A DNA stretch of 31,492 nt from a virus (Duplodnaviria > Caudoviricetes): IMG/VR virus record IMGVR_UViG_3300020414_002934, positions 1-31,492 of that record. One strand, written 5' to 3'. The notes beneath the pieces were generated by a model. That model worked only from the letters and a program-made list of their open reading frames with translations, ran no database searches and had not been told where the DNA came from. The translations under genes and the position numbers were made by a program. Position 1 is the first letter of the stretch, and each line of letters begins with the position of its first letter. Of this stretch, positions 15,688 to 31,492 are shown piece after piece.

Positions 15688-18600
15688 ATGACACTCGATT
15701 TTAACATTTCCCCATATTACGACGATTTTGAGACAAATGCAAAACAACAATATTATCGCATCCTCTTTCGTCCTTCAGTTGCTCTTCAAGCTAGGGAGCT
15801 AACACAACTCCAATCAACTCTTCAAAATCAGATCAAAAGTTTTGCTGATCATACTTTTGAAGATGGTGCCATGGTTATTCCTGGCGCAACTGCTCTTGAT
15901 AAAGATTATGGGTTTATTAAAGTCGGTTCAACGTTTTCATCAGCTGATGTAGAATTATATCGAGCTGAATTTCTCAATACAATAATTACTGGGCAAACTA
16001 CTGGTGTTACAGCAAAGGTTGTTGGTACTGTACCAGTAACTGGATCTGATCCTATTACACTTTTCGTAAAATATACAAGCTCAGGTACAAATAAAACCAC
16101 AAAGACTTTTGCGCAAAATGAAGTTGTAGTATCTAATGCTTCTACACCAAGATCAGCTCAAATTGAAAATGTATCTGGTAGTGTAGGATTTGGATCAGCC
16201 GCAAACATTCAACCAGGTATCTATTATGTCAGTGGAACATTTGCTTTTGTCACAAGCCAAACACTTGTTCTTGATAAGTATACAAACACACCATCATATA
16301 GAGTTGGTCTTACTGTAAATGCAACAATTGTTTCATCTACTACAGATTCAAACCTAAATGATAATGCAACAGGATCTCCAAACTTTGCTGCACCTGGTGC
16401 TAACAGATATAAGATAGAACTTACACTTACGAAAAAAGGTTTGACTGCTACTGATGATCAAAACTTTATTGAACTCCTAAGAGTAGAAAATGGTGTAATT
16501 GCTAATCAAATCAGATCAACAGAATATTCAGTCCTTGAAGATACCTTTGCCCGTAGAACTTATGATGAATCGGGTGACTATGCAGTGCGTCCATTTGGTA
16601 TTGATGTAAGAGAACACCTACAAGTTAATAACAATCGTGGTATCTATGCATCTGGTAATGGTGGTAGCGATGCTAAACTTGCAGTTGGTATTGAGCCAGG
16701 AAAAGCATATGTTCGTGGTTATGAAATTGAAACACTGTCAACTACCTTTCTTGATGTAAATAAAGCAAGAGATACACAGCAAATTAAGAACTCAATTGTT
16801 CCCTTTCAAATGGGTAACTTTACACTAGTTAATACCACTACTAATTTACCTGATGTAAGTAACTATGAAAAATTAGATCTTATTAGCTCGGCCAGTACTG
16901 TAATTGGTACTGCCAGAGCAAGAGCATATGAACTTCATTCTGGTACACAAGGTACTTCTGGAGCGGTCTATAAACTATACCTCTTTGATATTCAAATGTC
17001 AGGTTCAAATCTATTCTCGGCTGTTAATACTATCAATACAGTAGGTTCTACATCTGGTAAATTTGCATCAACCACAGTTAAAACTAGTGGTTCAGCTACA
17101 CTTAACGAAATTCAAAATAACGACTTATTGTTTCCTTTACCTTATCAAACAGTAGAAACTATTAGAGATCAAAGTAATGCAATTGATACCACAATTACAG
17201 TAAGAAGAGTTTATACTAGAACACTTTCATCTGGACTTAATACTATTACAGCTGGATCTGATGAGTCATTTCAAACACCGTATTCGGGCGTTGACTTTCT
17301 AGTTGCAAATGCAAGTACTGGTACAGTCTATGATATGTCACTATCTGATGGTACAGGCGGTGCACCAAGACTTTCAATTTCCGGTACAAATAGTGTTAAC
17401 CTTCAAATTGACCTTACTGGTGCAAGTCTTACAAATGAAACACTTACTGTAATTGCAACAGTAGTAAAAAGAGTTTCACAAGAAAAACAAAAGACATTAG
17501 TACAAAATCATAATTTAGATATTGCTTCACCAAATACTACAGTAAATGCTACTGATTCTCTATTGAAAGCTGATATTTTTAAACTAGTGGCAGTTCATGA
17601 TTCAGGAGTTGCTGGAACAAATGCTACTACCTCAGATTTGAATATTACAGATAGATACGAACTAGACAATGGTCAAAGAGATAACTTTTATGATGTTGGA
17701 TCAATTAAACTTAAACCAGGTATGCCACCACCTAGTGGTAGAATCCTAATTATTTTTGACTATTTTACACATGGAGCTGGTGATTATTTCTCAGTTGATT
17801 CATATTCAAACCAGGTTACTTACGCTGAAATTCCTACTTATGCCTCGGCAAATACAACATATGAATTAAGAGATGTACTAGACTTCCGTCCACGTGTACG
17901 TGACGATGGACAATCATTCACAAATGCTGGTGGTACTAATCAATCTGGTGCTGCACTTACCGAAATTGGTAAGATTGCATCAAATATGATTATGGACTTT
18001 AGATATTTCTTACCACGTACAGATAAAATTTATGTAGATCCAAAAGGTAATTTTAAAGTCGTTGAAGGTGTATCTGCAGCTAATCCTGCTACACCAAGTG
18101 ATCCAGATGATGGAATGGTTCTTTATACACTTAGACTTAATCCATACACCTTTGATGTAAATGATATTGTACCAGAAAGAAAAGATAATAAACGCTTTAC
18201 TATGCGTGATATTGGTAGACTAGAACATAGAATTAACAACCTTGAATATTATACATCGCTTTCACTTCTTGAAAAAGAAACAGCTGATGCTCAGATTCTA
18301 AACTCTTCAAATGTAGATAGATTTAAATCTGGCTTTATTGTAGATCCTTTTTATGGTCACAATATTGGTAATCCAAAAGATCCAGATTATCATGTATCTA
18401 TTGATGCCGATGCTGGTGAAGCAAGGCCACAATTTTATGAAGGTAATGTAAGAATTGAACAAAGTGGATCTGGTAGTTCAAGTACTTATCAGCAAACTGG
18501 TGATATTATTTCACTACCATATACAGAAACTACTATTATCGACCAGCCATTTGCATCAGGTACAGAAAATGTTAACCCGTATGACATCTTTCAGTTTATT

Positions 18601-20976
18601 GGTCAAATTGACCTATCACCTACAAGTGATGAATGGAAAGAGACAGACGTAAGACCAGAACTTATTATTGATAACGAAGGTCTATTTGATGTGGTTAATA
18701 CTTTGGCTAATGAAGATGGTGTACTTGGTACAGTTTGGAATGAGTGGGAAACTCAGTGGGCTGGTAGAGAAATGCAAATTGGTGAAGATAGCCAACATCA
18801 AAGATCAGGCCGAAGAATTTTTGTAGATACTCTAATTGCCCGTCAAGAAACTCAAACAAGAACTGGTGTTCGTACATCGGTTGCACCTGATACTATTCAA
18901 ACATCATTTGGTGAAAGAGTTGTAGACGTAAGAATGGTACCATTTATTAGATCAAGAAGAGTTAAATTTAAGGCTACAAGATTTAAGCCTAACACAAGAT
19001 TGTATCCTTTCTTTGAAGATATTTCTGTAAGTGACTTCACTAATAATATTACAGCAGCTCAGTTTATTAGACATTCAACTACACCTGTAGATCCAGAGCC
19101 AAACTTTAGTGCGGTGCGTCACCCTGATCTTTCTGCTTCAAATATTTCGGCTGGAGATAATGCGCTTATTACAGATCCAACAGGAACTGTACATGGTGAA
19201 TTCTATATTCCAAATACTGCAGCAATTAGATTTAGAACTGGTGAAAGACTCTTTACACTAGTTGATGATCCAAACAACAACAATGCAAATATTACAACTT
19301 CTGGTAGAGCAACATATGCCGCTTCTGGTATTATTAACTCCACACAAGAGGTAAGCTTACGTTCACCTACACTTACACAAGAGTCAGTAAACGATCAAAG
19401 AAGTACAGTTGTTACTCGTCAGTCTACACGTACAGTTGGCTGGGTTGATCCTCTTGCTCAAACCTTCTTGGTTGATAATCCTGAAGGTGCATTTATGACA
19501 AGTGTAGATCTATTCTTTAGTGAAAAAGATCTTAATATTCCTCTTACACTTCAGATTCGTGGAGTAGTAAATGGTTATCCTTCTCCAGAAATTCTGGCCT
19601 TTGGTGAAGTTGTAAAACCTGCAATTGATATTAATACATCGGACGATGCTACATCAGCTACTACCTTTACATTTCCAGGACCAGTTTATCTAAGACCAAA
19701 CCAAGAATATGCACTTTGTCTCTTGGCTAACTCAAATGCTTATAGAGTATATACTGCTGAAATTGGTCAAAATTCTATTGGAACTACAAGACGTATTTCT
19801 ACACAACCATATGCTGGTGTATTCTTTAAATCTCAAAATGGTTCAACTTGGTCAGCCGATCAAACTAAAGACCTTATGTTTAAGATTAAAAGAGCAAATT
19901 TTGATACAACTGCAAGTGGTGTGGTAGACTTTACTAATGCTGCTATTATAGCTAGACCATTAAGTGCAAATCCATTCAAAACAACAAATGCCCAAACTAA
20001 GGTTATTGTTAAACATAGAAACCACGGTATGCCGTCTGGTTCTACAGTAACTATAGCTGGAGTTGCATCTGATGTTGGTGGAATCGCATTTAGCCAATTT
20101 AATGCTAACCATGTTATTTCACAAGTAGAACAAGATCAATATGCCATTACCTTAGCATCACAAGCTACCGGAACTACAACTGGTGGTGGAACTGCAGTAA
20201 CAGCTACTGAAAATAAACATATTGATGTTCTTTATCCTAGTATGCAAGAAGTAATACTTCCAGAAACAACTATTGCATATGCATTGAGAACTACTTCTTC
20301 ACAATCACTAGCTGGTACTGAAAATACATATCAAAAACCAACTTCGTATACATCAATCATTTCAAATCAAAGTTACTATCCAGATGCTCCTCAACAAGTT
20401 GCTTCACCAATCAATGAAACTACCTCCATGGCTGGAGCTAAATCATTTGACCTAAGAGCTACGTTAGCATCTACTAATTCTTTCCTTAGTCCAATGATTG
20501 ACCTTGAAAGAACTTCAGTTCATACAATTGCAAATAGGATTGATAATCCTCAGTTACTTGCTGGAACTGATAGTGGTAAAAATAATGTTGCTGACTTCTT
20601 GCCTGAAACCGCACCAACTGGTGGATCAGCCTTGGCCAAATATATTACAAGAAAAGTAACCTTGGCTCAAAGTTCTATTGGACTTAGAATTATATTTGCT
20701 GCTAATAGACCTGATGGATCTGAAATTGAGGTATATCATAAGACTCAAGAGGCTGGTGCAGATGCTCCATTTGCAGGACTTAATTGGGTACAAGCCACGC
20801 TTGATAATGCAGTAGCAAGTACTGATGATCCAAGAGAATTTAGGGATTATGAATATACAGTTGATCTAAGTTCATCACCATTCCAGACTGTAGCAATCAA
20901 AGTAGTATTTAAATCTCAATCTTCGGTAGCTACACCAAGAATTAAAGATTTTAGAGTTATTGCGTTAGGTACATAA
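15688..20976 (+). CDS. Large virion structural protein, VrlC/DUF4815-like (1762 aa)
   Basis: FN.SPYYDDF, YYRILFRP...LQARELTQLQS.LQNQI, APGANR.KI, ARRTYDESGDY, GKAYVRGYE, FTMRDIG.LE.RI.NLEYYTSLSLLE and DPLAQTF motifs. Confidence 0.85.
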   Translation: MTLDFNISPYYDDFETNAKQQYYRILFRPSVALQARELTQLQSTLQNQIKSFADHTFEDGAMVIPGATALDKDYGFIKVGSTFSSADVELYRAEFLNTIITGQTTGVTAKVVGTVPVTGSDPITLFVKYTSSGTNKTTKTFAQNEVVVSNASTPRSAQIENVSGSVGFGSAANIQPGIYYVSGTFAFVTSQTLVLDKYTNTPSYRVGLTVNATIVSSTTDSNLNDNATGSPNFAAPGANRYKIELTLTKKGLTATDDQNFIELLRVENGVIANQIRSTEYSVLEDTFARRTYDESGDYAVRPFGIDVREHLQVNNNRGIYASGNGGSDAKLAVGIEPGKAYVRGYEIETLSTTFLDVNKARDTQQIKNSIVPFQMGNFTLVNTTTNLPDVSNYEKLDLISSASTVIGTARARAYELHSGTQGTSGAVYKLYLFDIQMSGSNLFSAVNTINTVGSTSGKFASTTVKTSGSATLNEIQNNDLLFPLPYQTVETIRDQSNAIDTTITVRRVYTRTLSSGLNTITAGSDESFQTPYSGVDFLVANASTGTVYDMSLSDGTGGAPRLSISGTNSVNLQIDLTGASLTNETLTVIATVVKRVSQEKQKTLVQNHNLDIASPNTTVNATDSLLKADIFKLVAVHDSGVAGTNATTSDLNITDRYELDNGQRDNFYDVGSIKLKPGMPPPSGRILIIFDYFTHGAGDYFSVDSYSNQVTYAEIPTYASANTTYELRDVLDFRPRVRDDGQSFTNAGGTNQSGAALTEIGKIASNMIMDFRYFLPRTDKIYVDPKGNFKVVEGVSAANPATPSDPDDGMVLYTLRLNPYTFDVNDIVPERKDNKRFTMRDIGRLEHRINNLEYYTSLSLLEKETADAQILNSSNVDRFKSGFIVDPFYGHNIGNPKDPDYHVSIDADAGEARPQFYEGNVRIEQSGSGSSSTYQQTGDIISLPYTETTIIDQPFASGTENVNPYDIFQFIGQIDLSPTSDEWKETDVRPELIIDNEGLFDVVNTLANEDGVLGTVWNEWETQWAGREMQIGEDSQHQRSGRRIFVDTLIARQETQTRTGVRTSVAPDTIQTSFGERVVDVRMVPFIRSRRVKFKATRFKPNTRLYPFFEDISVSDFTNNITAAQFIRHSTTPVDPEPNFSAVRHPDLSASNISAGDNALITDPTGTVHGEFYIPNTAAIRFRTGERLFTLVDDPNNNNANITTSGRATYAASGIINSTQEVSLRSPTLTQESVNDQRSTVVTRQSTRTVGWVDPLAQTFLVDNPEGAFMTSVDLFFSEKDLNIPLTLQIRGVVNGYPSPEILAFGEVVKPAIDINTSDDATSATTFTFPGPVYLRPNQEYALCLLANSNAYRVYTAEIGQNSIGTTRRISTQPYAGVFFKSQNGSTWSADQTKDLMFKIKRANFDTTASGVVDFTNAAIIARPLSANPFKTTNAQTKVIVKHRNHGMPSGSTVTIAGVASDVGGIAFSQFNANHVISQVEQDQYAITLASQATGTTTGGGTAVTATENKHIDVLYPSMQEVILPETTIAYALRTTSSQSLAGTENTYQKPTSYTSIISNQSYYPDAPQQVASPINETTSMAGAKSFDLRATLASTNSFLSPMIDLERTSVHTIANRIDNPQLLAGTDSGKNNVADFLPETAPTGGSALAKYITRKVTLAQSSIGLRIIFAANRPDGSEIEVYHKTQEAGADAPFAGLNWVQATLDNAVASTDDPREFRDYEYTVDLSSSPFQTVAIKVVFKSQSSVATPRIKDFRVIALGT

Positions 20977-21179
20977 TGAGAGTAAATATAAAAGATAAGC
21001 CAGGCCTACAAAGAGATTTAACAAGTGGTGCTGTAATAAATACTGATAATAATGCTTTTTTGAAAGCAGTAAAAGCAAATGAAATGGCAATGGCAAAAGA
21101 ACAAGAGTTACTTGATATTAAAAATGATGTCAAAGAACTAAAACAACTAATGCAAACAATTATTGAGAGGCTTAACTAA
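20976..21179 (+). CDS. Small hypothetical protein with C-terminal coiled coil
   Basis: L.RD..SGAVINTD motif and heptad C-terminus. TAATG-coupled on both sides. Confidence 0.75.
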   Translation: MRVNIKDKPGLQRDLTSGAVINTDNNAFLKAVKANEMAMAKEQELLDIKNDVKELKQLMQTIIERLN

Positions 21180-22357
21180 TGGCTGCAATTAATGTACCAA
21201 CAACTGATACCTTCGAACAGTGGAGGACAAAAACTAATAACCTGTCCAACCTAGTTGGAGATGGAGCCACACTTACAAGCCAATATACTGGAAGCGATGT
21301 TATATCTGTTCTAAATGAAATTAAATCAGCTTCCACATTTGATAATATTGTAACCATTAACGATCAAGCAACTGATGGAACTACTGAATTAGCTGGTAAT
21401 GCCGCTAATTTAATTATTAGTGCGGGTGCACAAACTGTTCTTACACTAAATCAAACTGGTGATGTTGCAGTACATGCCGATTTAACTACTGGAGCATCTG
21501 CAAGTATAGGTACAACCCTTGGTGTAACTGGTGCGGCAACTGTTGGTGGTACTACTACCTCTCAAGGTCAAGTAATTGCAAATGCTGGTATTGATTGTAA
21601 TGGAAACCAAGACATCTCAGGTACTTTGGATGTTGGCGGTGCTACTACTGTAGGTGGCACACTTGGAGTAACTGGCAATACTACATTAGCAGTAACACAA
21701 ACTGGCAATCTTACAGTAAATGGTACACTTAATGCTGGTGCAAATACTATTACCACAACTGGTAATATGAATTGTCAAACTTTGACAACTAGTAATAATC
21801 TTGTAGTTAATGGTAATACCACACTTGGTAATTCAACTGCAGCTGATTTAGTTACATTTGGATCAAGAGTAAATACTGCAATTAATCCAAGTTCAGATAA
21901 TGGATTTACATTAGGAACTTCATCTTTAAGATGGTCAACGGTTCATGGTGTTACCTTCTCGGGTACAGCAACTACCGCAAACTACGCTGACTTGGCTGAG
22001 CTTTATCTTTCTGATTTTGCATATGAAGCTGGTACCGTGGTAAGAGTTGGTGGTGAATTTGAAGTTACAGCTACTGATGGTGATCACAATCATTCAGTAC
22101 TTGGAGTTATTTCTGCTTATCCAGCATATCTCATGAATAATCAACTAGAAAACGGTATCCCAGTTGCATTGAAGGGAAGAGTTCCAGTTAAAGTTAAAGG
22201 CTCAGTAAATAAAGGCGACCGATTAGTTGGTGGTAAAGATGGGCATGGAATTGCCGATAATGACTCACCTCACGGGTTTGCGATTGCGCTTGAATCTTTT
22301 GAGGCTAAAAAATCTGGAAAGGGTCAATACGGCGTAATAGAAGCCGTAGTTCTCTGA
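21179..22357 (+). CDS. Tail fibre/spike-like protein with C-terminal intramolecular chaperone (Peptidase_G2/IMC-like) domain
   Basis: N-terminal TDTFEQWRTKTN attachment motif; Gly/Thr/Val beta repeats (GTLGVTG); C-terminal YADLAE...GTVV...VLGVIS..PAYLMN...PVALKGRVPVKV.G.V.KGD.LV. Confidence 0.75.
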   Translation: MAAINVPTTDTFEQWRTKTNNLSNLVGDGATLTSQYTGSDVISVLNEIKSASTFDNIVTINDQATDGTTELAGNAANLIISAGAQTVLTLNQTGDVAVHADLTTGASASIGTTLGVTGAATVGGTTTSQGQVIANAGIDCNGNQDISGTLDVGGATTVGGTLGVTGNTTLAVTQTGNLTVNGTLNAGANTITTTGNMNCQTLTTSNNLVVNGNTTLGNSTAADLVTFGSRVNTAINPSSDNGFTLGTSSLRWSTVHGVTFSGTATTANYADLAELYLSDFAYEAGTVVRVGGEFEVTATDGDHNHSVLGVISAYPAYLMNNQLENGIPVALKGRVPVKVKGSVNKGDRLVGGKDGHGIADNDSPHGFAIALESFEAKKSGKGQYGVIEAVVL

Positions 22358-22358
22358 G

Positions 22359-22886
22359 TTAAACATCATTGTACAAATATAAATCAAATGCAGCACTTAA
22401 TCTTAACTGCTTAGTTGGCCTGACTGAATGATAAAGAAAGCTTGGAAAGATGAGTACATCACCCTGCTCTGGCTGATAAACGGTTGGCTCAAACATAGGC
22501 CTAAACCTTAAATCATATCCCCTTGAAGCAAATCCTCTTGGATCATAAAATACTATTTCACCACCTTCACCAGCTTCTAATATTACAATAGCCGAAAGGT
22601 GAGAACCAGCATGAGTATGAGCTTCCATTCCTGGATGTCCATGCTCATACTTATTGACCCATGATTTTAGTTGATAGTGACCCCAGTCATCAAGATTCAT
22701 TCCTTGACTGGCTAGGTAGTCATCAAACTCCATTTCCATTATTTCTTTAAGTGTATCAGTTATTTCATTTCTTTCTATAGCTGGCATTAGAACTTTATCA
22801 TCATCCAGTATAATTTTGGACTTACTAATTACCGTCGGGTAAAGTAGATTTAAGCCCACATTCAGCGTCATAGTATTTTCTGACAT
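22359..22886 (-). CDS. Putative 2OG-Fe(II) oxygenase (TIGR02466-like)
   Basis: SWVN, HTH, G.IVFYDPR, GDVLIFPSFLYHSV and R.S.AFD motifs. Confidence 0.85.
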   Translation of the reverse strand: MSENTMTLNVGLNLLYPTVISKSKIILDDDKVLMPAIERNEITDTLKEIMEMEFDDYLASQGMNLDDWGHYQLKSWVNKYEHGHPGMEAHTHAGSHLSAIVILEAGEGGEIVFYDPRGFASRGYDLRFRPMFEPTVYQPEQGDVLIFPSFLYHSVRPTKQLRLSAAFDLYLYNDV

Positions 22887-23250
22887 CGGGTACCATTCCT
22901 TCTAGTTTTAAGTGGCCTTTATTATTATTGCAAACCACTTCAATTATTCTATCATATGTTTTTTTATCTTCGCTATATGGAACAAAGTAGGGATCCATTG
23001 GAAGCAATTCGGGATCTTTTAATACAGTATAAAAATTTTCATTATAGTCTTCCATTATCCAAAATGCATAGCAAATAGCAACCATATAAGATTTTGCTGG
23101 ATATATCCAACCAACATCGGTTTCTCTAAAATATTTTATTGCATCATTGACTATATCGTTTGAAAGAATAATTTCAACATCAGTCAAATCATCTTCAAAT
23201 TCTTTATTAAGCTTGTGATATAACTTCTGTTTGATTCGCCATTCTTGCAT
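22825..23250 (-). CDS. Hypothetical protein of the radical SAM cluster
   Basis: 141-aa ORF overlapping its neighbours in operon fashion; WIYPAKSY..AICYA and DPYFVPY segments; no family recognised. Confidence 0.65.
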   Translation of the reverse strand: MQEWRIKQKLYHKLNKEFEDDLTDVEIILSNDIVNDAIKYFRETDVGWIYPAKSYMVAICYAFWIMEDYNENFYTVLKDPELLPMDPYFVPYSEDKKTYDRIIEVVCNNNKGHLKLEGMVPDVRKYYDAECGLKSTLPDGN

Positions 23251-23638
23251 ATTTTTTTACCGCTCTCATTAAAAAATATCTTTGTATTGAATTGTGTAAA
23301 AATGTGAATTTGCATTCCAATTTATAAACTGGTTCTGAAAATTTATACGTATCTTCTACAACGCATTTTACAAAAAAATCTTTAAATTCAACATAAGGAG
23401 ACTTAAAACATATGTGTGGATCATCATCATTGCCGTGCCCTTCGCAACTTCCTACAGTATCTATTCCTTGACTTAACATGTAAAGCACATGTGGCCAGAT
23501 CTTCTTTTCTATTCTTGTTTTAAATTCTGGATGTGTAACTGGTAAAGAATATCCTGTATAGTCTTCTCCTATATGAGTAAAAGGCATAATTTTATTGTGC
23601 TGTTTTTCCATACCAGTCAATAAGTCCTCTGTATCCAT
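23207..23638 (-). CDS. Hypothetical protein with T.xSCEGH motif
   Basis: GIDTVGSCEGH motif. The true start may be the ATG at 23611 or later. Confidence 0.6.
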   Translation of the reverse strand: MDTEDLLTGMEKQHNKIMPFTHIGEDYTGYSLPVTHPEFKTRIEKKIWPHVLYMLSQGIDTVGSCEGHGNDDDPHICFKSPYVEFKDFFVKCVVEDTYKFSEPVYKLECKFTFLHNSIQRYFLMRAVKKYARMANQTEVISQA

Positions 23639-24497
23639 TGCAAGAGTTTTTTAAGTCTTTAACATATCTATAATGTTCAGTTAGACAATGTCCAAAATAA
23701 CTACAACTATTACAAATAGGAGATTGTACTCTTTTTTCTTGCCAAGCCCATTGTTGATATGAACTATAGCTTGGTAGCTCTAAAAAATATTCATTATCGT
23801 TTTTATCAAATTCTAATACACCAAACTTTCCATTGGGTGTAATATATACATGGTCATCACTCCAAGCATTATAATGTTTGTTATAACTATCAACTATATT
23901 GTCATAATTGATAAATTGAAAGTTCTTTTGTATTGGAGACTCTAACCATTTTATAACAAAATTCTCATAATCCTTGTGAGTTATTTCAAATGTATTAGCC
24001 TGATTAGTAGAATATGGTTTTATTTCAACAGAGATAATAGAATTAATCAGATTTAAGTTCTGAACCATCTCGTCCACATCCATTGTGATAACCCTTGGTG
24101 ACGCCAAGATCAGCAAGGATATTGGCTTAGGGCTATACAACATATTATGGAATACTATTTCATGTTTTTCTCTCGCCTCAAAATCATATGATACTGATAA
24201 TGATACATCATCTGCAAAAAACCTATCGTCTAACATAGAAAAATTTGTATTGATATTGATTGTACCATCATAATGTTTTTTTATAACTTCTTTTATTTCT
24301 TCGTAATATGATCTTTTGATTGCACCAATCTCTCCACCATATAAATCAATATGGTCAATAGAATCTTCTACCTGTGATAAAAGCTCATCTAGTTTTTCTG
24401 GTTCTATCTTTTTTTGATCACCCAATTGTTCTGGTGTAAGATAGCAGAAGTCACATCTAAAATTACAAAAATATGTTGGATTGATTGATATATTCAT
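23592..24497 (-). CDS. Radical SAM protein with a partial SPASM-like C-terminus
   Basis: NPTYFCNFRCDFCY (CxxxCxxC), YGGE and NTN motifs; C-terminal CNSCSYFGHC...C. Confidence 0.9.
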   Translation of the reverse strand: MNISINPTYFCNFRCDFCYLTPEQLGDQKKIEPEKLDELLSQVEDSIDHIDLYGGEIGAIKRSYYEEIKEVIKKHYDGTININTNFSMLDDRFFADDVSLSVSYDFEAREKHEIVFHNMLYSPKPISLLILASPRVITMDVDEMVQNLNLINSIISVEIKPYSTNQANTFEITHKDYENFVIKWLESPIQKNFQFINYDNIVDSYNKHYNAWSDDHVYITPNGKFGVLEFDKNDNEYFLELPSYSSYQQWAWQEKRVQSPICNSCSYFGHCLTEHYRYVKDLKNSCNGYRGLIDWYGKTAQ

Positions 24498-25525
24498 ATT
24501 GATTCATTTACGTATGGTGTCATTTGCATATCTAATCCATTTGCTTCTAAAATATCAGGACCAAGTTGTTTCATATGATAGCAATGATCTTCTACCATAT
24601 CATGTTCTTTAAGGTCCTTGATTGTTTTTTTACAGCCATTACAAATACTAAACATGGGACAAGAATAACATCCCATTTTAAGACTATTCAGTTCAGGTGA
24701 ATCAGCCAATGGTGTAACAAAGCCACCTTTCATTTCAAAATCAAAGTCAATAGCTTTATCTTTATCATCACCAAAGGCTCCACAAGAATAGTAATCACCT
24801 TCGGGTTGTATGGTTCTAATATTACTGTCACACGTACGCGTGAGCGGGCAGATGGTATTTTCACCTCGAATACGTTTCATCATTTGTTGAGTATTATGTT
24901 CCCAAGGTGCTAAACCAGCTTTCCATATACTAATATAATGTTCATATATTTTAGAAAGTCTATATGGAGCATCTTGTTCTCCAGAGGCCATGGCATAGTT
25001 TACTTTACAAACCACACCCATTTCTTTTGCTAACTCTACAGTTTTTATTACACTCCATTCGTTTTCTTCAGTAATAACTGCAATAAATTCTGGTCTATAT
25101 CCAACATAATATAACATATAATCAGAGCACATAGTAAAGTCTTCTTCAGTAAATACTGAATAGTCACCTTTTAATCTACCGTTTCCATATTGAAAAGAAG
25201 TGCATACACCCACTCTTTTATTTTTAAAAAGTGGTAACCATTTATCTTTATTTTTATAGAAAGGCCAAAGATTAGTAGTAAGAGATATATTGGCAGGCAA
25301 ATCATTTTCATCTAAGTAATTAATAATTTCCCAGTAATACTTGGGATCCATCATCAAAGGGTCACCACCATTTACAATAATAGTGTTAGTCTCTGGATAC
25401 CTATCCAAAAACTGAAAAATTTTCATCAAGTCAAGCTTTGATGCTTTATCTTCTACTAATTTTGTGCTTGAACAGAATGTGCATTTAAAATTGCACAACT
25501 CAGTTGGCTTAATTATCAAATCCAT
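24494..25525 (-). CDS. Radical SAM/SPASM domain protein
   Basis: IKPTELCNFKCTFC, NGGDPL and TTN motifs. SPASM-like C-x10-G-x4-C ... CxxC-x5-C-x2-C ... C. Confidence 0.92.
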   Translation of the reverse strand: MDLIIKPTELCNFKCTFCSSTKLVEDKASKLDLMKIFQFLDRYPETNTIIVNGGDPLMMDPKYYWEIINYLDENDLPANISLTTNLWPFYKNKDKWLPLFKNKRVGVCTSFQYGNGRLKGDYSVFTEEDFTMCSDYMLYYVGYRPEFIAVITEENEWSVIKTVELAKEMGVVCKVNYAMASGEQDAPYRLSKIYEHYISIWKAGLAPWEHNTQQMMKRIRGENTICPLTRTCDSNIRTIQPEGDYYSCGAFGDDKDKAIDFDFEMKGGFVTPLADSPELNSLKMGCYSCPMFSICNGCKKTIKDLKEHDMVEDHCYHMKQLGPDILEANGLDMQMTPYVNESI

Positions 25526-25537
25526 AATTAATCAATT

Positions 25538-26194
25538 TTATACTGTATGTTGAGTTCTCTTATTCCTTAACTCGTCGCCTTTATTTACCACTTGTGCATT
25601 TACAACAAGTGTAAGTCTTTCTTCATCACCATGATAATGTGTAACTTCGTGCCATAGGTATTGTGGTGCAATAACCATAGTACCTCTTTTTGACTTGAAC
25701 TTTTCTAATCTTGATCCACCAAAGTAATAGTTTCTTTGCCACCTTGGATCATACAATACGAGCTCACCGCCTTCTTCATCACTTACGTCGTTAAAATATA
25801 TGCAAGCAAAAGCGTCATCAGAATAATGCGTATGTACACCAAGCCTATATCCTTTCTTCATTAAGTTAATTTTACAGGAATCTAGCTCGCAATCCAAAAT
25901 CATTTTATCGGTATTTGATTCTGTCATGTTTTCTAAATTACTATAAGCAAGAGCTATAAAACCTTTTTTAACTTCGTCAATAAGCTCTTTCATTTCTGGA
26001 CATTGGCCTTCAACTATAGCATCAATAACAATATTTTCATTCCCATCTTGATATTCAGCATGGTCATTATCAGTTGAGCTTATAAAGTTTAAGTGCTGAG
26101 CCCGTAGAAAACTTTCTATTACTGCAAGTTTTTCTTCACTAATATCCAATTGCTTATGGTAAATATTAGTGGGATATATTTCTTTTATTGCCAT
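25538..26194 (-). CDS. Putative 2OG-Fe(II) oxygenase (TIGR02466-like)
   Basis: HTH, GGELVLYDPR, G...IAP..LWHEV and ERLTLVVN motifs. Confidence 0.85.
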   Translation of the reverse strand: MAIKEIYPTNIYHKQLDISEEKLAVIESFLRAQHLNFISSTDNDHAEYQDGNENIVIDAIVEGQCPEMKELIDEVKKGFIALAYSNLENMTESNTDKMILDCELDSCKINLMKKGYRLGVHTHYSDDAFACIYFNDVSDEEGGELVLYDPRWQRNYYFGGSRLEKFKSKRGTMVIAPQYLWHEVTHYHGDEERLTLVVNAQVVNKGDELRNKRTQHTV

Positions 26195-26197
26195 TTT

Positions 26198-26503
26198 TTA
26201 ATTCTCATCATTAGGTTTCTCATACCCATATTTATACACGCAGTTTTGTTCGTATGGTGTTTCACTAATAGAATCTACACCTTCAATTTGACATATTTCT
26301 CTATTACAAACACGAATTTCTTCTTTTACCATATTAGCATACGGCTCAAGATTGTCTATCATTTTCAAGTACATTTCGTATTTCTCTTTATTGTCTTGGA
26401 AATCATGCATCTTTGTTATCCACAGGTTGTATAACTCTGCAGTTAAATCTCTTTCTGAGCATAATATCTTTTTTCTATTCAGTACGTCCTGTAGAGAAGT
26501 CAA
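26198..26503 (-). CDS. Hypothetical helical protein with several Cys
   Basis: 101-aa ORF filling the gap between two oxygenases. The TTG start is uncertain. Confidence 0.55.
   Translation of the reverse strand: MTSLQDVLNRKKILCSERDLTAELYNLWITKMHDFQDNKEKYEMYLKMIDNLEPYANMVKEEIRVCNREICQIEGVDSISETPYEQNCVYKYGYEKPNDEN
26229..26236 (-). promoter_or_regulatory. Candidate T4-type late promoter TATAAATA inside the radical SAM cluster
   Basis: The minus strand reads CGTGTATAAATA (26240-26229), identical to the 12-mer at 10881-10892. It lies about 35 nt upstream of the ATG at 26194, but within a coding region. Confidence 0.45.
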
Positions 26504-26981
26504 AAGAACAAAGCCTCCTTCTTATTTTTGTATCATCTGCCTTATGCCAAAATCCTCTAATATTTGAAACTAAAAAAAGATCTCCTGCCATTGGCTGATA
26601 ACTAGCTGTTTTATCTCCATCCCATTTAAAGTTAATTGCTCCACCACTTTCTTTATATGTATGGTCTAAGTAATATAGAAAAAAGACATCATAGTCTTCA
26701 AACATATCAGTATGCCAACCTTGGTTATCCTTATCAACTCCATCCCATATAAGATATTTGTTAAAGATAGCCTCTGGCCATTCTGGTAAAATATATGTCT
26801 GATAAAGATGTTGACCAAATAAATTTAATTTGTTGGCCAAGAGATGATCAATATCTTCTTTACCGTTATCCCTTGCTCTTTCTTCTGTATTCAAAAGTTT
26901 ATGTTCATTGATTTGTATTAAATCTAGTCCTTGTGGTTCATAAAATTTTACATATCCTTTTGTATAGATATCTGATATCAT
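26475..26981 (-). CDS. 2OG-Fe(II) oxygenase superfamily protein
   Basis: WHTD (HxD), YLD, GG.INF, GDLFL, WHKA (distal His) and RR.CSFD motifs. Confidence 0.8.
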   Translation of the reverse strand: MISDIYTKGYVKFYEPQGLDLIQINEHKLLNTEERARDNGKEDIDHLLANKLNLFGQHLYQTYILPEWPEAIFNKYLIWDGVDKDNQGWHTDMFEDYDVFFLYYLDHTYKESGGAINFKWDGDKTASYQPMAGDLFLVSNIRGFWHKADDTKIRRRLCSFDFSTGRTE

Positions 26982-28651
26982 GCTAGCCTCTTAAATAATT
27001 CACTCACAATTAGAGTTCGATTATACTTTAAGAACTCTTCGATTGTTTCCACTCTAAATTTACCACCAAGTTGTCTTATAGACTTAGGTGGAGTGGATGG
27101 ATCGAAGATGTCCTTTATTTCTTTATATATCTCTTCCCATCCATCCATCTTTATTATAACACAAAAACACTGCTTTGTAAATAGGGAAGGTGAACAAACA
27201 TCATCAAAAATTGGATAAAGATTACGCAATAGCCAATTTGATGCATTATTCATAAACCACATTTCCATCATATCTTCTTTGGTAAATGAGTTACATGATA
27301 GTATGGTTTTGAAATATGTTTTCTTTTGTTTATATAAACTATGCCAGTTATCACTACCATCTTCATCCACGATATCAGTATAGACTTCCACTGTCTGGAT
27401 GTTATGTAGTTTTTTGTAAGATTCTGAATTTAATCGTGAATCAGGTAGAAACATATAATCATGTCTAAATGAACTCCATGCTTGAAAATTCCATATCACT
27501 TCCATTTCGTCATAAAAATCTTGTATTGTAGAACCTGGCATTGCTAATATAAGTTCAAGAGCTGGTATAGGAAATCCTTCTTCACTACATCTTTGATTGA
27601 TATATCTACTTAGTTCTAGTTTATCGTTATTTGATAAATCAATTCTATCAGCCATCTTCATAGCTGTATCACTAATACTTTGTATGGACACTGTTGGTAC
27701 TACTGAAACATATTCAGTTTCTCCCCACATATCAGTACCACCTTGAGCCTTTGAATGTTTTTCTGGACCTGTACCTACAATATTAAACCAACGATCAATA
27801 AGACGTTTTCGCCTTTTTAAATCTTTTGACTTCATAGTAGAAATATCAGTAAGGTTAAATTTATTGGTCCAAGCAAATTCAAATATTTCTAGATCCCTAT
27901 CTTCAAAGGCACCAAAATTAGCATCAGTTAAATAGGCATCTCGGTATCCAGCTTTTTTCAAAGCCATGACATCACGTTTTACTATTGACACGTCTTTTTT
28001 ATAGATCTTAGTATTAATACCTCCACCCCACTCGCAAAAGACACATTTATATGGACAACCTCTTGTAGTTTCAAGAACTATAAAAGGTTCCATTTTGTTT
28101 TCCCATGCATAATTAACTGATTCTTTTAAATAATCAAAGTGCTCTTCATATACAGAATAATCTTCGGTAGATAAATCATGAATGCGACCTTTACCATTAC
28201 GAAGTTCCCATGCTATATTTTGTGGGTCTAATCTGTCTTCAATATAGCAATCAATAAGGTCTTCCATAAAAGGTTCACCTGGTTTTGTAGGCTCACAAAT
28301 ATAATCATAAAACCATCTTTGTTTTAGTAACTCAGGTTCGTTTGTTCCAATATGTGGACCACCAAGTACTAAAATTTTATCAGGATATTCTTCTTTTATT
28401 TGTTTAGCGATGCCATCCACAATTGTATAGTTCCAGGCGTAGGAGCTGAACATGATGACATCAGCAGGCATAATCTCTCTGATGACTTCATTGTGTGATT
28501 CGTACTTGTTCCATTTGTACGGGGCTGGAAGAAACTTAACTTGATCTGCATAACGGCCTCTGTGCTTATAGTGACTCTGTATTAATAGGTAGGTCACATT
28601 ATTCGCTAGTGACCAGTCAGCGTGCGGTGGATTTATAAATGCTATCTGCAT
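26978..28651 (-). CDS. Cobalamin (B12)-binding radical SAM protein
   Basis: N-terminal B12-binding-like domain (FSSYAWN...ILVLGGPH...GE), then ETTRGCPYKCVFCEWG, TDANFG, SIQS and ELILAMPG.T. Probable start is MQIAFINPP at 28651; the ORF track starts at 28681. Confidence 0.88.
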   Translation of the reverse strand: MQIAFINPPHADWSLANNVTYLLIQSHYKHRGRYADQVKFLPAPYKWNKYESHNEVIREIMPADVIMFSSYAWNYTIVDGIAKQIKEEYPDKILVLGGPHIGTNEPELLKQRWFYDYICEPTKPGEPFMEDLIDCYIEDRLDPQNIAWELRNGKGRIHDLSTEDYSVYEEHFDYLKESVNYAWENKMEPFIVLETTRGCPYKCVFCEWGGGINTKIYKKDVSIVKRDVMALKKAGYRDAYLTDANFGAFEDRDLEIFEFAWTNKFNLTDISTMKSKDLKRRKRLIDRWFNIVGTGPEKHSKAQGGTDMWGETEYVSVVPTVSIQSISDTAMKMADRIDLSNNDKLELSRYINQRCSEEGFPIPALELILAMPGSTIQDFYDEMEVIWNFQAWSSFRHDYMFLPDSRLNSESYKKLHNIQTVEVYTDIVDEDGSDNWHSLYKQKKTYFKTILSCNSFTKEDMMEMWFMNNASNWLLRNLYPIFDDVCSPSLFTKQCFCVIIKMDGWEEIYKEIKDIFDPSTPPKSIRQLGGKFRVETIEEFLKYNRTLIVSELFKRLA

Positions 28652-29636
28652 ATCTAAAAGTCGCCTTAAAAACGCATTCACTCATATCTTGTTCTATATG
28701 TTTATAGTCTTCTTTAATAAAACAAGATAAAGGACAACGTTGAAAAAATTCACATTCAAAACAATTATACTTATCTAAAAAATTCTCAACAATTACTGGT
28801 CCACCCAATTCAGGTGTTTGAGCCTCTTTCAAAAAGACAGCACCAGAACATCCTTCTGGCTTAGCGCCATCAGGCATAATAGTTAAAGAGTTACCTCTTG
28901 TACATATCATTTTGTTTGCTGGTTTGTCATTAACGAAATGATCTATATTCAAACACCTAGGGTATTTATTCACTAACACCTTATAGAATTCAAATAAATC
29001 TCTTTCACTAGGCATTAAAACTCTTGAGGTAGCTACACTTGGTAGGAAGTGATCAAAGTCACAGGTATAGTTAGTATAAAGAGCTTCAAATATTTGATCG
29101 CCTTCAATAATTTTATCTATGTTTTGTTTGGTTGCTACAAGAGAAACCATTTGAATATAGTCTTGAAAATATCTTATATTGCGTGTAAACTTATCTAAAT
29201 CACTTTTACTAAATCGGCCTGCAGGGTCATAACTTATAGAAAATTTTAGATCATTCCGAGCTAAAAAATACATAACCTCAGTGACATTATCAAAACATAA
29301 GTTAGTAATAAAATTAAAATATATGTCTGCTTCAGTTTGTTCGTCAATAGCTTTTATAAAATCTTCATACGTATCTATGAAGCCATCATCAATCCATCTA
29401 TCTTGAAATAGCTCACCACCCATAATATGAATTTTGTAAGATTGTTTTCTTGGATTATTATTGATCCATTCGACAATAGGATCAACCTTAGCCATTATCT
29501 CATCATGACTAGCACCAAGTATAGATTTATGATCTTGTGGACAGAAGACGCACTTAAGATTACAGTGCTCAAATAGACATACAACTATTTCACCATAACG
29601 AACGACTTTTGCATCAATAATATCATATATGTCCAT
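28617..29636 (-). CDS. Radical SAM protein with SPASM-like C-terminus
   Basis: FEHCNLKCVFC, MGGE, ITN and ISYD..GRF motifs. C-terminal C...G.....C ... CFECEFFQRCPLSC (Cx2Cx5Cx3C) ... C. Confidence 0.9.
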   Translation of the reverse strand: MDIYDIIDAKVVRYGEIVVCLFEHCNLKCVFCPQDHKSILGASHDEIMAKVDPIVEWINNNPRKQSYKIHIMGGELFQDRWIDDGFIDTYEDFIKAIDEQTEADIYFNFITNLCFDNVTEVMYFLARNDLKFSISYDPAGRFSKSDLDKFTRNIRYFQDYIQMVSLVATKQNIDKIIEGDQIFEALYTNYTCDFDHFLPSVATSRVLMPSERDLFEFYKVLVNKYPRCLNIDHFVNDKPANKMICTRGNSLTIMPDGAKPEGCSGAVFLKEAQTPELGGPVIVENFLDKYNCFECEFFQRCPLSCFIKEDYKHIEQDMSECVFKATFRYADSIYKSTAR

Positions 29637-30772
29637 TACATTATAGCGTATTGTTCTCTAAAGTCTTTATTACCGTCTAACAGTGCTTGTACAAAATAGT
29701 GATTTACAGTCTCTAAATCAATGGAGAAGAATGAACCTGCTGCATGCTCATAAGTAGCTTCGGTTTTAATAATCATATCAAGCTGCTTATCAGTCATTTC
29801 AGATCCACGAATACACTCAATAAAGTCTAGTTTACCAATGTCTGACTTTACATATTCATACTGGCTTTCCTGCCAATTTGCACCAGCCAACTTAGCAAAC
29901 TTAGCAATTGACTTAATATGTTTATCAGTAATTCCTGCAAAATTTACGTTTTTACCAGAAGTTGGTCGACTCATATATGGTTGGTTCCAAATATTTTTAT
30001 TTAAAAATAGACTTGGAAATTCAGATTTGTCTTTTAAGATCTCATCATAATTTGTAAAGTCATATGTCTTATCAAGGTCAAGTGTTTCAGTAAATCTCTT
30101 TGTAAGGATATGAACAAAAAATGTTTCTTTAAGTTCATACAAATACTTTTCAAGGTCCTTTTTAACTAAGATGCGCATTACTGTTTTTAGTTCTTTTTTG
30201 CATTTGCCATTAGCAAGATATGTTGCCAATAGATATTCTAAACTTATGGATGATTTATTTTCTGTCAAAAACTTTTTTCTACGTTCGGCTGATGGCTTTT
30301 GCGCACCATCAAAAATCTTACCAAAGCCTTCAATATTAATTTCATATGGTTCATCTGTATTACCGTTATTAGAAGTAAATCTGCCTTGGCCAAATAGTTT
30401 GTGTTTGAATACCATTGACTCCAAAAGATCTACTGCAGCAGATTTATTAGTTTTCTTAAATATCATTCTAAACCATAATGCCATAACCTTCATAAATGCT
30501 TGATGGTCACAGTAAATAACAACTCTTTTACCGTGCTTATCAGTATGATCTCCTAACTTATCAAACATATCTACTGTGTCTACGTATGGTAGATTTTTTG
30601 ATCCTATTAGGTTTTTAACTTCTTTAGCAAAAGCTAAAAGTGTACCTGGTTGTGAAGCCTTAAGTGATTCTAAAAGGTCAACGCCATGTTCTCTCGAAAT
30701 TACTACTCGATCAAATGATACATCAATATTGTTATCTGGTGCTACGTAGACCTTTTTAAATAGATGTAGCAT
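29636..30772 (-). CDS. Hypothetical protein of the radical SAM cluster (378 aa)
   Basis: Long ORF with TAATG coupling to the downstream rSAM gene. MLHLFKKVYV start and VVIYCD segment; no family recognised. Confidence 0.7.
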   Translation of the reverse strand: MLHLFKKVYVAPDNNIDVSFDRVVISREHGVDLLESLKASQPGTLLAFAKEVKNLIGSKNLPYVDTVDMFDKLGDHTDKHGKRVVIYCDHQAFMKVMALWFRMIFKKTNKSAAVDLLESMVFKHKLFGQGRFTSNNGNTDEPYEINIEGFGKIFDGAQKPSAERRKKFLTENKSSISLEYLLATYLANGKCKKELKTVMRILVKKDLEKYLYELKETFFVHILTKRFTETLDLDKTYDFTNYDEILKDKSEFPSLFLNKNIWNQPYMSRPTSGKNVNFAGITDKHIKSIAKFAKLAGANWQESQYEYVKSDIGKLDFIECIRGSEMTDKQLDMIIKTEATYEHAAGSFFSIDLETVNHYFVQALLDGNKDFREQYAIM

Positions 30773-31427
30773 TCTTGTTCTCCTGTAATGTTCCGGTAGC
30801 GATACCGTGTGTTAATAGAAACATGGGATTGTTTTCATTTGCCCAGTAACTATATAAGTTGTTTCCCTTAAACATATATTCATTAAAATATGATTTGTAA
30901 AAAGTTTTATGGTCATCAATTACGTTTCCATAAAACTGAAAAAATCTTTCATGGTTTAAAAGAGATACCCAATTAATTCCAGTTAAATCTTTTGTATCAT
31001 CTTCTGGAAACGATTCAACATAATCTTTAAACTCTACAGAATTTACTGTGTAAAGGTTATAAAGTGAAAGTGAATCAAGTTTTTTTGCCCAAGACTTAAG
31101 TATATCTACATTGGCATCAATAAATTCTTTTTCGGTTGGTTCAACTAAACCTTTCATTTGCAATAAAAGTTCTGTAACTCTTTCTTTTAGAATTGGTATG
31201 TCTACAATAAAGTTTGCCTCAAGGTAGTGCTTAGTCATCTCATCAAAACCTTCTTGTGTGGTAAATCCAATATCGCATGGAATTTCTAGGTTACCCAGAT
31301 ATGTAAGCAGTTTTGGTCCTTGAAGAGTAGAATCCTCATAATGGATCATATAAAAAGTTTCTTTATTACTAAAAAATAATTTAAGCTCCGATATATCGAT
31401 AGGAGCAGTTGTCTCAATTATATTCAT
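30756..31427 (-). CDS. Hypothetical protein of the radical SAM cluster (223 aa)
   Basis: TAATG-coupled to the upstream Cys-His-repeat ORF. ETTAPI...LK.FF and LLTYLGNL.IPCD segments. Confidence 0.7.
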   Translation of the reverse strand: MNIIETTAPIDISELKLFFSNKETFYMIHYEDSTLQGPKLLTYLGNLEIPCDIGFTTQEGFDEMTKHYLEANFIVDIPILKERVTELLLQMKGLVEPTEKEFIDANVDILKSWAKKLDSLSLYNLYTVNSVEFKDYVESFPEDDTKDLTGINWVSLLNHERFFQFYGNVIDDHKTFYKSYFNEYMFKGNNLYSYWANENNPMFLLTHGIATGTLQENKNATSI

Positions 31428-31492
31428 TATCTTCTTCCTCTAGAGCTATGGCATGAACTATGGCATGAAGCGTGGCATACATCAATTTGAAT
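31427..31492 (-). CDS. 3' end of an ORF with a C-terminal (C-H-x-S)3 repeat; candidate radical SAM substrate or precursor
   Basis: Hand translation: ...IQIDVCHASCHSSCHSSRGRR*. The TAA at 31429-31427 overlaps the next ATG. The 5' part lies outside the window. Confidence 0.75.
   Translation of the reverse strand: MQIDVCHASCHSSCHSSRGRR
31446..31478. repeat. Imperfect 12-bp tandem repeat encoding CHxS
   Basis: Plus strand reads ctatggcatgaa ctatggcatgaa gcgtggcat. Confidence 0.8.

Follow-up and report, generated by a model that had tools for sequence, protein, structure and literature searches.

Precursors of the SCIFF peptides (ranthipeptides) are short and carry six Cys residues. In triceptides an aromatic residue is linked to a C-beta on a three-residue motif, with rings found in His-Ala-Ala and His-Thr-Lys and with Phe accepted in place of His, as given in the available parts of PMC11499958. 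HXS, the nearest known system, is a four-gene bacterial defence with a periplasmic peptidoglycan-binding effector, in which a protein with His-x-Ser repeats is matured by HxsB and HxsC and changes in mass by +8 Da, the chemistry being unresolved according to the available text of PMC13128918. Radical-SAM maturation of His-x-Ser proteins is already known, and it is the setting proposed here that would be new. S74 fibres are prey adhesins in Bdellovibrio (MAT fibres, with an S74 chaperone), as described in the available sections of PMC10769870. Papers on phages that carry the genes presented below list the enzymes without a role in the portions available (PMC8066314, PMC11898562), and radical SAM cassettes have been noted in the host-recognition island of marine phages (PMC7029224, in part). 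The word "radical" is absent from a review of jumbo phages (PMC7824862), and the system is not described in the available portions of PMC9062424, PMC12801897 and PMC5468394. A literature search, with subscription journals mostly outside it, gave no description of the motif or of the cassette as a system, and no case in which a virus particle protein is matured by a radical SAM enzyme. The motif and its cassette are real and widespread and, within the literature covered, apparently undescribed, and their chemistry is a proposal. In phages RP12 and RP31, which are not among our cassette matches, a radical SAM cluster is located at a comparable gene number (available part of PMC5468394).

The window, by which we mean the whole stretch of 31,492 nucleotides that was analysed (viral contig IMGVR_UViG_3300020414_002934), corresponds to the region of a T4-like phage that encodes baseplate and tail (Table 1). 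At its edge a gene on the minus strand ends with three Cys-His-x-Ser units, encoded by a 12-bp repeat with synonymous variation (TGC CAC GCT TCA / TGC CAT AGT TCA / TGC CAT AGC TCT), and after the basic end its stop codon overlaps the start of the gene for a 223-aa partner in the sequence TAATG; all of these features, first noticed in the sequence-only reading, were found again when the minus strand was re-read. A degenerate three-repeat pattern has one match in the window and none in 100 shuffles. The frame of the tailed gene stays open up to the contig end, with no upstream in-frame stop that lacks a start codon, and since the window is the whole record and the contig edge cuts the gene, its start is located outside this sequence. 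The closest relative, L147, with 83% nucleotide identity over window 26196-31487, has a gene of 189 aa at the same place.

Table 1. Features of the tailed gene, the cassette and the adjoining structural genes in the window.
Feature	Position	Strand	Remarks
Three-repeat tail end, IQIDVCHASCHSSCHSSRGRR and stop	31492-31427	minus	last 21 codons and stop; predicted substrate
Three Cys-His-x-Ser units, CHAS CHSS CHSS	31442..31477	minus	sequence, conservation
Basic RGRR end	31430..31441	minus	R-x-R-R conserved in homologs
223-aa partner, no known family or fold	30756..31427	minus	overlaps the stop of the tailed gene
378-aa conserved protein	29636..30772	minus	no Pfam, NCBIfam or PHROG match
Radical SAM enzyme	28617..29636	minus	SPASM-type CX2CX5CX3C
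B12-binding radical SAM enzyme, methyltransferase-like	26978..28681	minus	accessory
2OG-Fe(II) oxygenase-like protein	26475..26981	minus	
101-aa protein	26198..26503	minus	recurs next to the B12 enzyme, in loci of phages and of bacteria
2OG-Fe(II) oxygenase	25538..26194	minus	
Radical SAM/SPASM enzyme	24494..25525	minus	53-60% identical in 15 cultured jumbo-phage records
Radical SAM enzyme	23592..24497	minus	partial SPASM-type Cys set
143-aa protein	23207..23638	minus	accessory
141-aa conserved protein	22825..23250	minus	phrog_20737; phage and bacterial cassettes
2OG-Fe(II) oxygenase	22359..22886	minus	final cassette gene
392-aa tail-fibre-like protein	21179..22357	plus	adjoins the cassette
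1762-aa DUF4815 baseplate-region protein	15688..20976	plus	

The cassette is located 3' of the motif and spans 22359-31427 on the minus strand, 9 kb or more. Its products are four radical SAM enzymes, three 2OG-Fe(II) oxygenases and five proteins that belong to no known family; in close relatives one more radical SAM gene, the fifth, is located immediately upstream of the tailed gene. The three SPASM-like enzymes proposed from the sequence are present, with SPASM-type Cys sets and lengths of about 300-340 aa, but the total in the window is four, the remaining one being of the B12-binding type. The 223-aa partner is without conserved Cys or His and is inferred to be a helper, not an enzyme; a search of a plasmid collection gave no match, and a fold search gave no clear solved match (best Z 4.8, about 55 residues). 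The 1762-aa DUF4815 protein we take to be VrlC. The sequence TATAAATA, presumably the T4 late-promoter consensus, occurs at window 4539, 4995, 10885, 14313, 14335 and 26229, the last on the minus strand within the cassette, just upstream of the 218-aa oxygenase. At 22357-22359 the cassette converges on the fibre gene in inverted orientation, whereas most relatives have both on one strand, with the cassette behind the fibre gene.

When the neighbours were tabulated, the tie between the motif and radical SAM genes held: 98 of the 98 distinct viral loci among the matches listed have one or more such genes, and the motif is thus not one that occurs mostly without them. These loci are related, so the linkage counts are not independent events. 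They comprise 80 loci with long flanks, from a motif scan giving at least 120 (40 more, with about 300 bases, were left unscored for neighbours), and 25 viral loci found blind to the motif with the 223-aa gene as query, minus 7 duplicates. In all 25 of the latter a motif gene of 187-216 aa is located directly upstream of the partner gene, with stop and start overlapping at -1 or -4 in 16. The partner is the most constant neighbour, present at 88 of 90 loci with enough flank among the matches listed, and missing in L028 and L049, where the ORF caller possibly picked the opposite strand. In the reverse direction, the 343-aa enzyme and the 223-aa partner match the same 15 of 50,697 phage records, and the tailed gene is present in all six records that were opened (Atu_ph07, RSF1, DT01, Phosso, SURPRISE13 and RSL2). 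The suggested pairing of three repeats with three enzymes did not survive, since the 79 loci with at least 7 kb downstream contain three (4 loci), four (23), five (40) or six (12) radical SAM genes and always three repeats. Two types of cassette could be distinguished among the matches listed, one with long single precursors and the enzyme families of the window (61 loci, 29 of them with the B12 radical SAM enzyme) and one with mostly paired precursors of 124-140 aa and a different radical SAM group (18 of 18 loci).

The enzymes might serve to synthesise a small molecule or to alter DNA or the surface of the host, with the tailed gene a mere neighbour in a hypervariable island, and according to the available part of PMC7029224 radical SAM cassettes do come and go in the post-baseplate hypervariable island of marine T4-like phages. 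However, the tailed gene moves inside the cassette in all contexts, often with the stop/start overlap given above, and each cassette type pairs its own precursor length with its own enzyme families, making this the most improbable of the explanations considered. Other arrangements were also observed. Contig IMGVR_UViG_3300025138_000014 (L006/L090 and L077) has one cassette of each type, separated by about 18 kb and preceded in each case by a separate fibre gene; this suggests that precursor, enzymes and fibre form dedicated sets. L026, L037, L042, L043 and similar short-type loci have two tandem paralogs of 124-140 aa with the full tail on both and with overlapping or adjacent stop and start codons. 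L149 was rejected as a chance match to the pattern, without a cassette.

The tailed protein is about 189-193 aa in close relatives, and 119 tailed proteins over the 98 distinct loci among the matches listed range from 124 to 309 aa with a median of 187. AlphaFold gives an alpha/beta body at residues 1-178 (mean pLDDT 82.8) and a tail with pLDDT of about 50. From the length of the relatives and the confident body model, the motif is the tail of a folded protein and not the core of a short peptide; it ends a predicted folded domain of about 180 aa. The short SCIFF-like or HxsA-type precursor first envisaged must therefore be given up, and the N-terminus, recovered via the relatives, belongs to a folded, probably virion-associated domain instead of a short leader. 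A profile search gave 823 clusters at 50% identity, and among the best 150 of these all 150 match a body-only profile, 136 have the strict tail at the end, and the remaining 14 are mostly near variants or truncated. The tailed protein has no match in Pfam, NCBIfam or named PHROGs, phrog_35144 (function unknown) being the sole match. A sequence search for solved relatives gave none (best E 0.14), Foldseek gave none at E 0.001 and VIA a best Z of 4.2, which does not prove a new fold, and the ESM Atlas had no usable match for this protein or for the partner. A tblastn search with one full-length homolog matched no cultured phage, although the partner as query did match some. Weak similarity to the body fold (E 4e-4 to 3e-3) is seen in three adjacent proteins of 504-660 aa in Myoviridae sp. 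ctijX18, and the body domain may therefore occur in longer proteins. In L030, L089 and L100 a 308-aa gene, with a start resembling the N-terminus of the tailed protein, precedes a tailed gene of 140 aa, and the tailed protein looks split around an insertion.

The tail of the relatives follows the pattern CHx[S/N]CHx[S/N]CHx[S/N/A]RxRR and is in register in 257 of 270 distinct homologs. In these, Cys occupies 771 of 771 positions and His 768 (with Asn, Pro and Tyr once each), figures that are partly preset because the register rule allowed one mismatch. R-x-R-R, itself part of the selection rule, is present in all 257 and does not vary in an alignment of 125 rows. Two residues after His (three after Cys) there is Ser in 704, Asn in 52, Ala in 12, Asp in 2 and Gln in 1 of the 771 cases, and never Gly or Thr, and Gly occurs 137 times at the x position of H-x-S. 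Differing codons among 22 distinct tail DNAs are synonymous in 1674 cases versus 483 non-synonymous, with Ser codons swapping between the TCN and AGY boxes; judged by its sequences, the motif is under strong selection at the protein level. In the out-of-register tails CHSNHANTCHTS (P0178), CHSNHSNTCHSS (P0210) and CHSNHCSHSNHGS (L198) H-x-S/N is kept and the Cys spacing lost, and in P0260 and P0268 Tyr or Phe replaces a His. Rings from His to C-beta are favoured because the +3 residue is never Gly and because H-x-S/N outlives the Cys spacing. A preference for Ser, Asn and Asp also suits a helix cap or the geometry of a metal site, and the tail pattern is compatible with a link from Cys-S to C-beta as well. 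Evidence against such rings is found in the non-aromatic substitutions of His, namely Asn in P0058 and Pro in P0064, and in L196, where a degenerate tail is located beside nine radical SAM genes. His-to-C-beta rings alone leave the invariant Cys unexplained, and these need a role of their own, as thioether or metal ligand.

The tail might instead remain unmodified and bind a metal (Zn, Fe or Cu) through its Cys3His3 set, or be the source of disulfide oligomers, with the enzymes acting on, for example, the fibre. This would agree with the invariant Cys and with the scarcity of Cys in the body (112 of 120 proteins have Cys in the tail alone), but it fails to account for the three to six radical SAM genes that are constantly present in T4-like phages, phiKZ-like phages and bacteria alike while the fibres vary, for the exclusion of Gly from +3 and for the swaps of His for Phe or Tyr; we consider it improbable. 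Heme attachment, from a reading of the tail as CX3CH, was set aside because no export signal is evident in the sequences.

The tail thus resembles several described systems. In common with HXS it is part of a whole protein with His-x-Ser repeats, paired radical SAM enzymes and nearby basic residues (compared with the available part of PMC13128918), the window having three H-x-S units and the homologs H-x-[S/N/A]. Unlike HXS, the protein has a Cys before each His, is phage-encoded and virion-associated, and its cassette has three to six radical SAM enzymes plus oxygenases. The best cassette scores against the HxsB and HxsC families are 23.7 bits versus a cut-off of 370 and 26.4 versus 267.9, HxsD has no match among 12 cassette proteins, the gene order differs from D-B-C-A, no peptidoglycan-binding domain was found by Pfam in 7 full-length homologs, and neither an HxsA nor a SCIFF model is among the NCBIfam matches at E up to 0.1 for 30 full-length homologs.

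The likeness to triceptides (HaaB, HtkB, XyeB and GrrM, in the available text of PMC11499958) lies in C-terminal Aromatic-X-X repeats with SPASM-type enzymes adjacent. The third residue has a C-beta in every one of the 771 cases (S, N, A, D or Q), three enzymes have CX3CX2C plus CX2CX5C sets, TIGR04085 scores 22.3 bits, just under its cut-off of 27, and DynA, which forms a cyclophane, is the NCBIfam model that the 343-aa enzyme matches best (E 3e-10). The substrate is, unlike those of triceptides, a folded protein of about 190 aa with invariant Cys and not a short leader-core peptide. Scores in bits against the cut-offs for cyclophane synthases are 39.8/450 (DynA), 22.2/650 (DarE), 18/450 (XyeB), 23.1/310 (GrrM) and 17.5/425 (AmcB), every score being below 10% of the cut-off of the triceptide maturase model; all cassette enzymes lie far below the cut-offs of known peptide maturases, which counts against the proposed modification of the tail. 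As in SCIFF, a Cys is found every four residues (CxxxCxxxC in 257 of 270 homologs) with a radical SAM/SPASM enzyme nearby, but there are three tail Cys and not six, there is no short precursor, and the spacing is broken in P0178, P0210 and L198. Membership of HXS, SCIFF and the known triceptide families was rejected, as their family models fail, and the system would act like these three without belonging to them. Of the modified core first proposed, His-x-Ser chemistry stands as the best reading, and the SCIFF- or HxsA-type short core falls.

The tailed protein is likely to be particle-associated, on the evidence of one phage and one distant homolog. In Atu_ph07 the homolog AUZ94952 corresponds to gp170, ten genes before the 13,350-base gp180; its computed mass of 31.89 kDa is an exact match to the published table, and the masses of gp176 and gp177 match too. 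The model of the tailed protein aligns with gp170 in Foldseek at E 5e-7 and TM 0.57, with 15% identity in the structural alignment. According to the available parts of PMC6102473, gp170 was identified in virions by mass spectrometry with 8 unique peptides and 35.16% coverage, and gp164-169 and gp171-175, which include the enzymes and the partner, are absent from the virion list there. It was most abundant in gel band 1, where proteins of 76-139 kDa peak. By a hand count of that table, 26 proteins of 25-36 kDa have at least 4 peptides, and 25 of them peak in bands 7-13, gp170 being the only one to peak in band 1; gp321 and gp616, other small proteins peaking there, have one or two peptides. This points to an SDS-resistant oligomer of gp170, but the sample was a PEG-purified stock and the loading buffer, as described in the available part of PMC6102473, lists no reductant, so disulfides as in an unmodified tail could also explain the top band.

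The same data bear on the possibility that the body is a large leader or carrier from which the modified 16-residue tail is released as a RiPP against the host or competitors. The tail is core-like and C-terminal and the tailoring enzymes are many, and the coverage of gp170 (about 104 of 296 residues, in the available text of PMC6102473) equals the sum of eight tryptic peptides without a tail peptide; the tail may therefore be absent or modified, although other peptide sets give the same sum. Against release, no recurrent protease or exporter is found in the cassette among nameable families, the body is present in virions, and the cassette is located within the structural module, so that we regard this explanation as quite improbable. 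A place on the particle is also in line with the fibre genes: of 78 viral loci among the matches listed that extend 5 kb upstream, 62 have the C-terminal domain of the 392-aa fibre gene beside the cassette, and the same domain is found in Atu_ph07 gp176, a virion protein.

The strict motif was found in 23 stretches among 185,579 species genomes, of which 7 resemble phage contigs in bins, 1 is a chance match and 1 a fragment. In the other 14 the cassette is surrounded by chromosomal genes, and 12 of these are titled as Bdellovibrionota groups. With the tails removed, the bacterial and phage bodies are homologous (HHalign probability 99). When 301 Bdellovibrionota genomes were searched without use of the motif, 11 proved to carry the partner, and in 8 of these 11 the tail was standard in 5 (one being a locus already seen), variant in 2 and at a contig edge in 1. 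Bacterial copies are without a virion, which counts against a particle protein. As with the MAT fibres of Bdellovibrio, genes for S74-terminated fibres flank the bacterial cassettes; the flanking fibres are, unlike MAT fibres, short (about 340-410 aa), several have a pilin-type N-terminus, and neither radical SAM nor pilin is mentioned in the available part of PMC10769870. Of 13 bacterial genomes, 11 (all but G145 and G279) have an S74 chaperone fibre gene no more than 20 kb from the cassette, with 1-4 S74 genes per genome, a count that shared descent inflates and from which the search may miss copies. A bacterial 200-aa flanking protein aligns with the phage fibre C-terminal domain over 22 columns at an HHalign probability of 34.5, the reversed control giving 0.2.

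Some further features are seen in the bacterial cassettes. The precursors L158:864-1433 and L162:156-764 have four Cys-His-x-Ser repeats and not three, and a glycosyltransferase-8-like gene product of about 510 aa is encoded within the cassettes at L154:1774-3312, L159:8757-10334 and L163:12059-13579. A protein of 100-125 aa with a twin-arginine-like start recurs (L154:1435-1773, L159:6039-6341, L163:15362-15688, L186:5659-6273), and together with it a 200-aa protein of no Pfam family beside the S74 fibre gene; these two might possibly constitute a putative export route.

In our proposal, the tail is probably the predicted substrate of the cassette on a particle protein. The radical SAM enzymes would modify the C-terminal tail after translation, the 223-aa partner presenting it as a helper, and the SPASM-type enzymes would abstract hydrogen from the C-beta of the Ser or Asn two residues after His and close a ring. 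By analogy to triceptides this ring may run from the His ring to C-beta, which we hold at somewhat short of an even chance, and a link from Cys-S to C-beta, in its place or in addition, appears rather doubtful. The B12 enzyme, the 2OG oxygenases and a JmjC/cupin protein would add optional methyl and hydroxyl groups, and the mature product, an oligomer resistant to SDS and possibly cross-linked, would be built into the region of the fibre or baseplate. That radical-SAM rings or cross-links build an SDS-resistant, possibly metal-binding part of the fibre, and that Bdellovibrionota do likewise on pilin-anchored fibre adhesins, is put forward tentatively.

The cassette is large and widespread and is kept by carriers as diverse as marine phages of the T4 type, jumbo phages (phiKZ-like and others) and bacterial predators, and is therefore likely to be important at host contact. 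Cultured carrier phages exist, a clear candidate substrate is now at hand for unstudied radical SAM, B12-radical SAM, JmjC and 2OG families, and light may fall on how His-x-Ser repeats are modified in HXS. If the proposal is true, phages and predatory Bdellovibrionota would share an undescribed chemistry for contact appendages, and virus particles would be completed, through the stitching of the tail, in a manner that has not been described.
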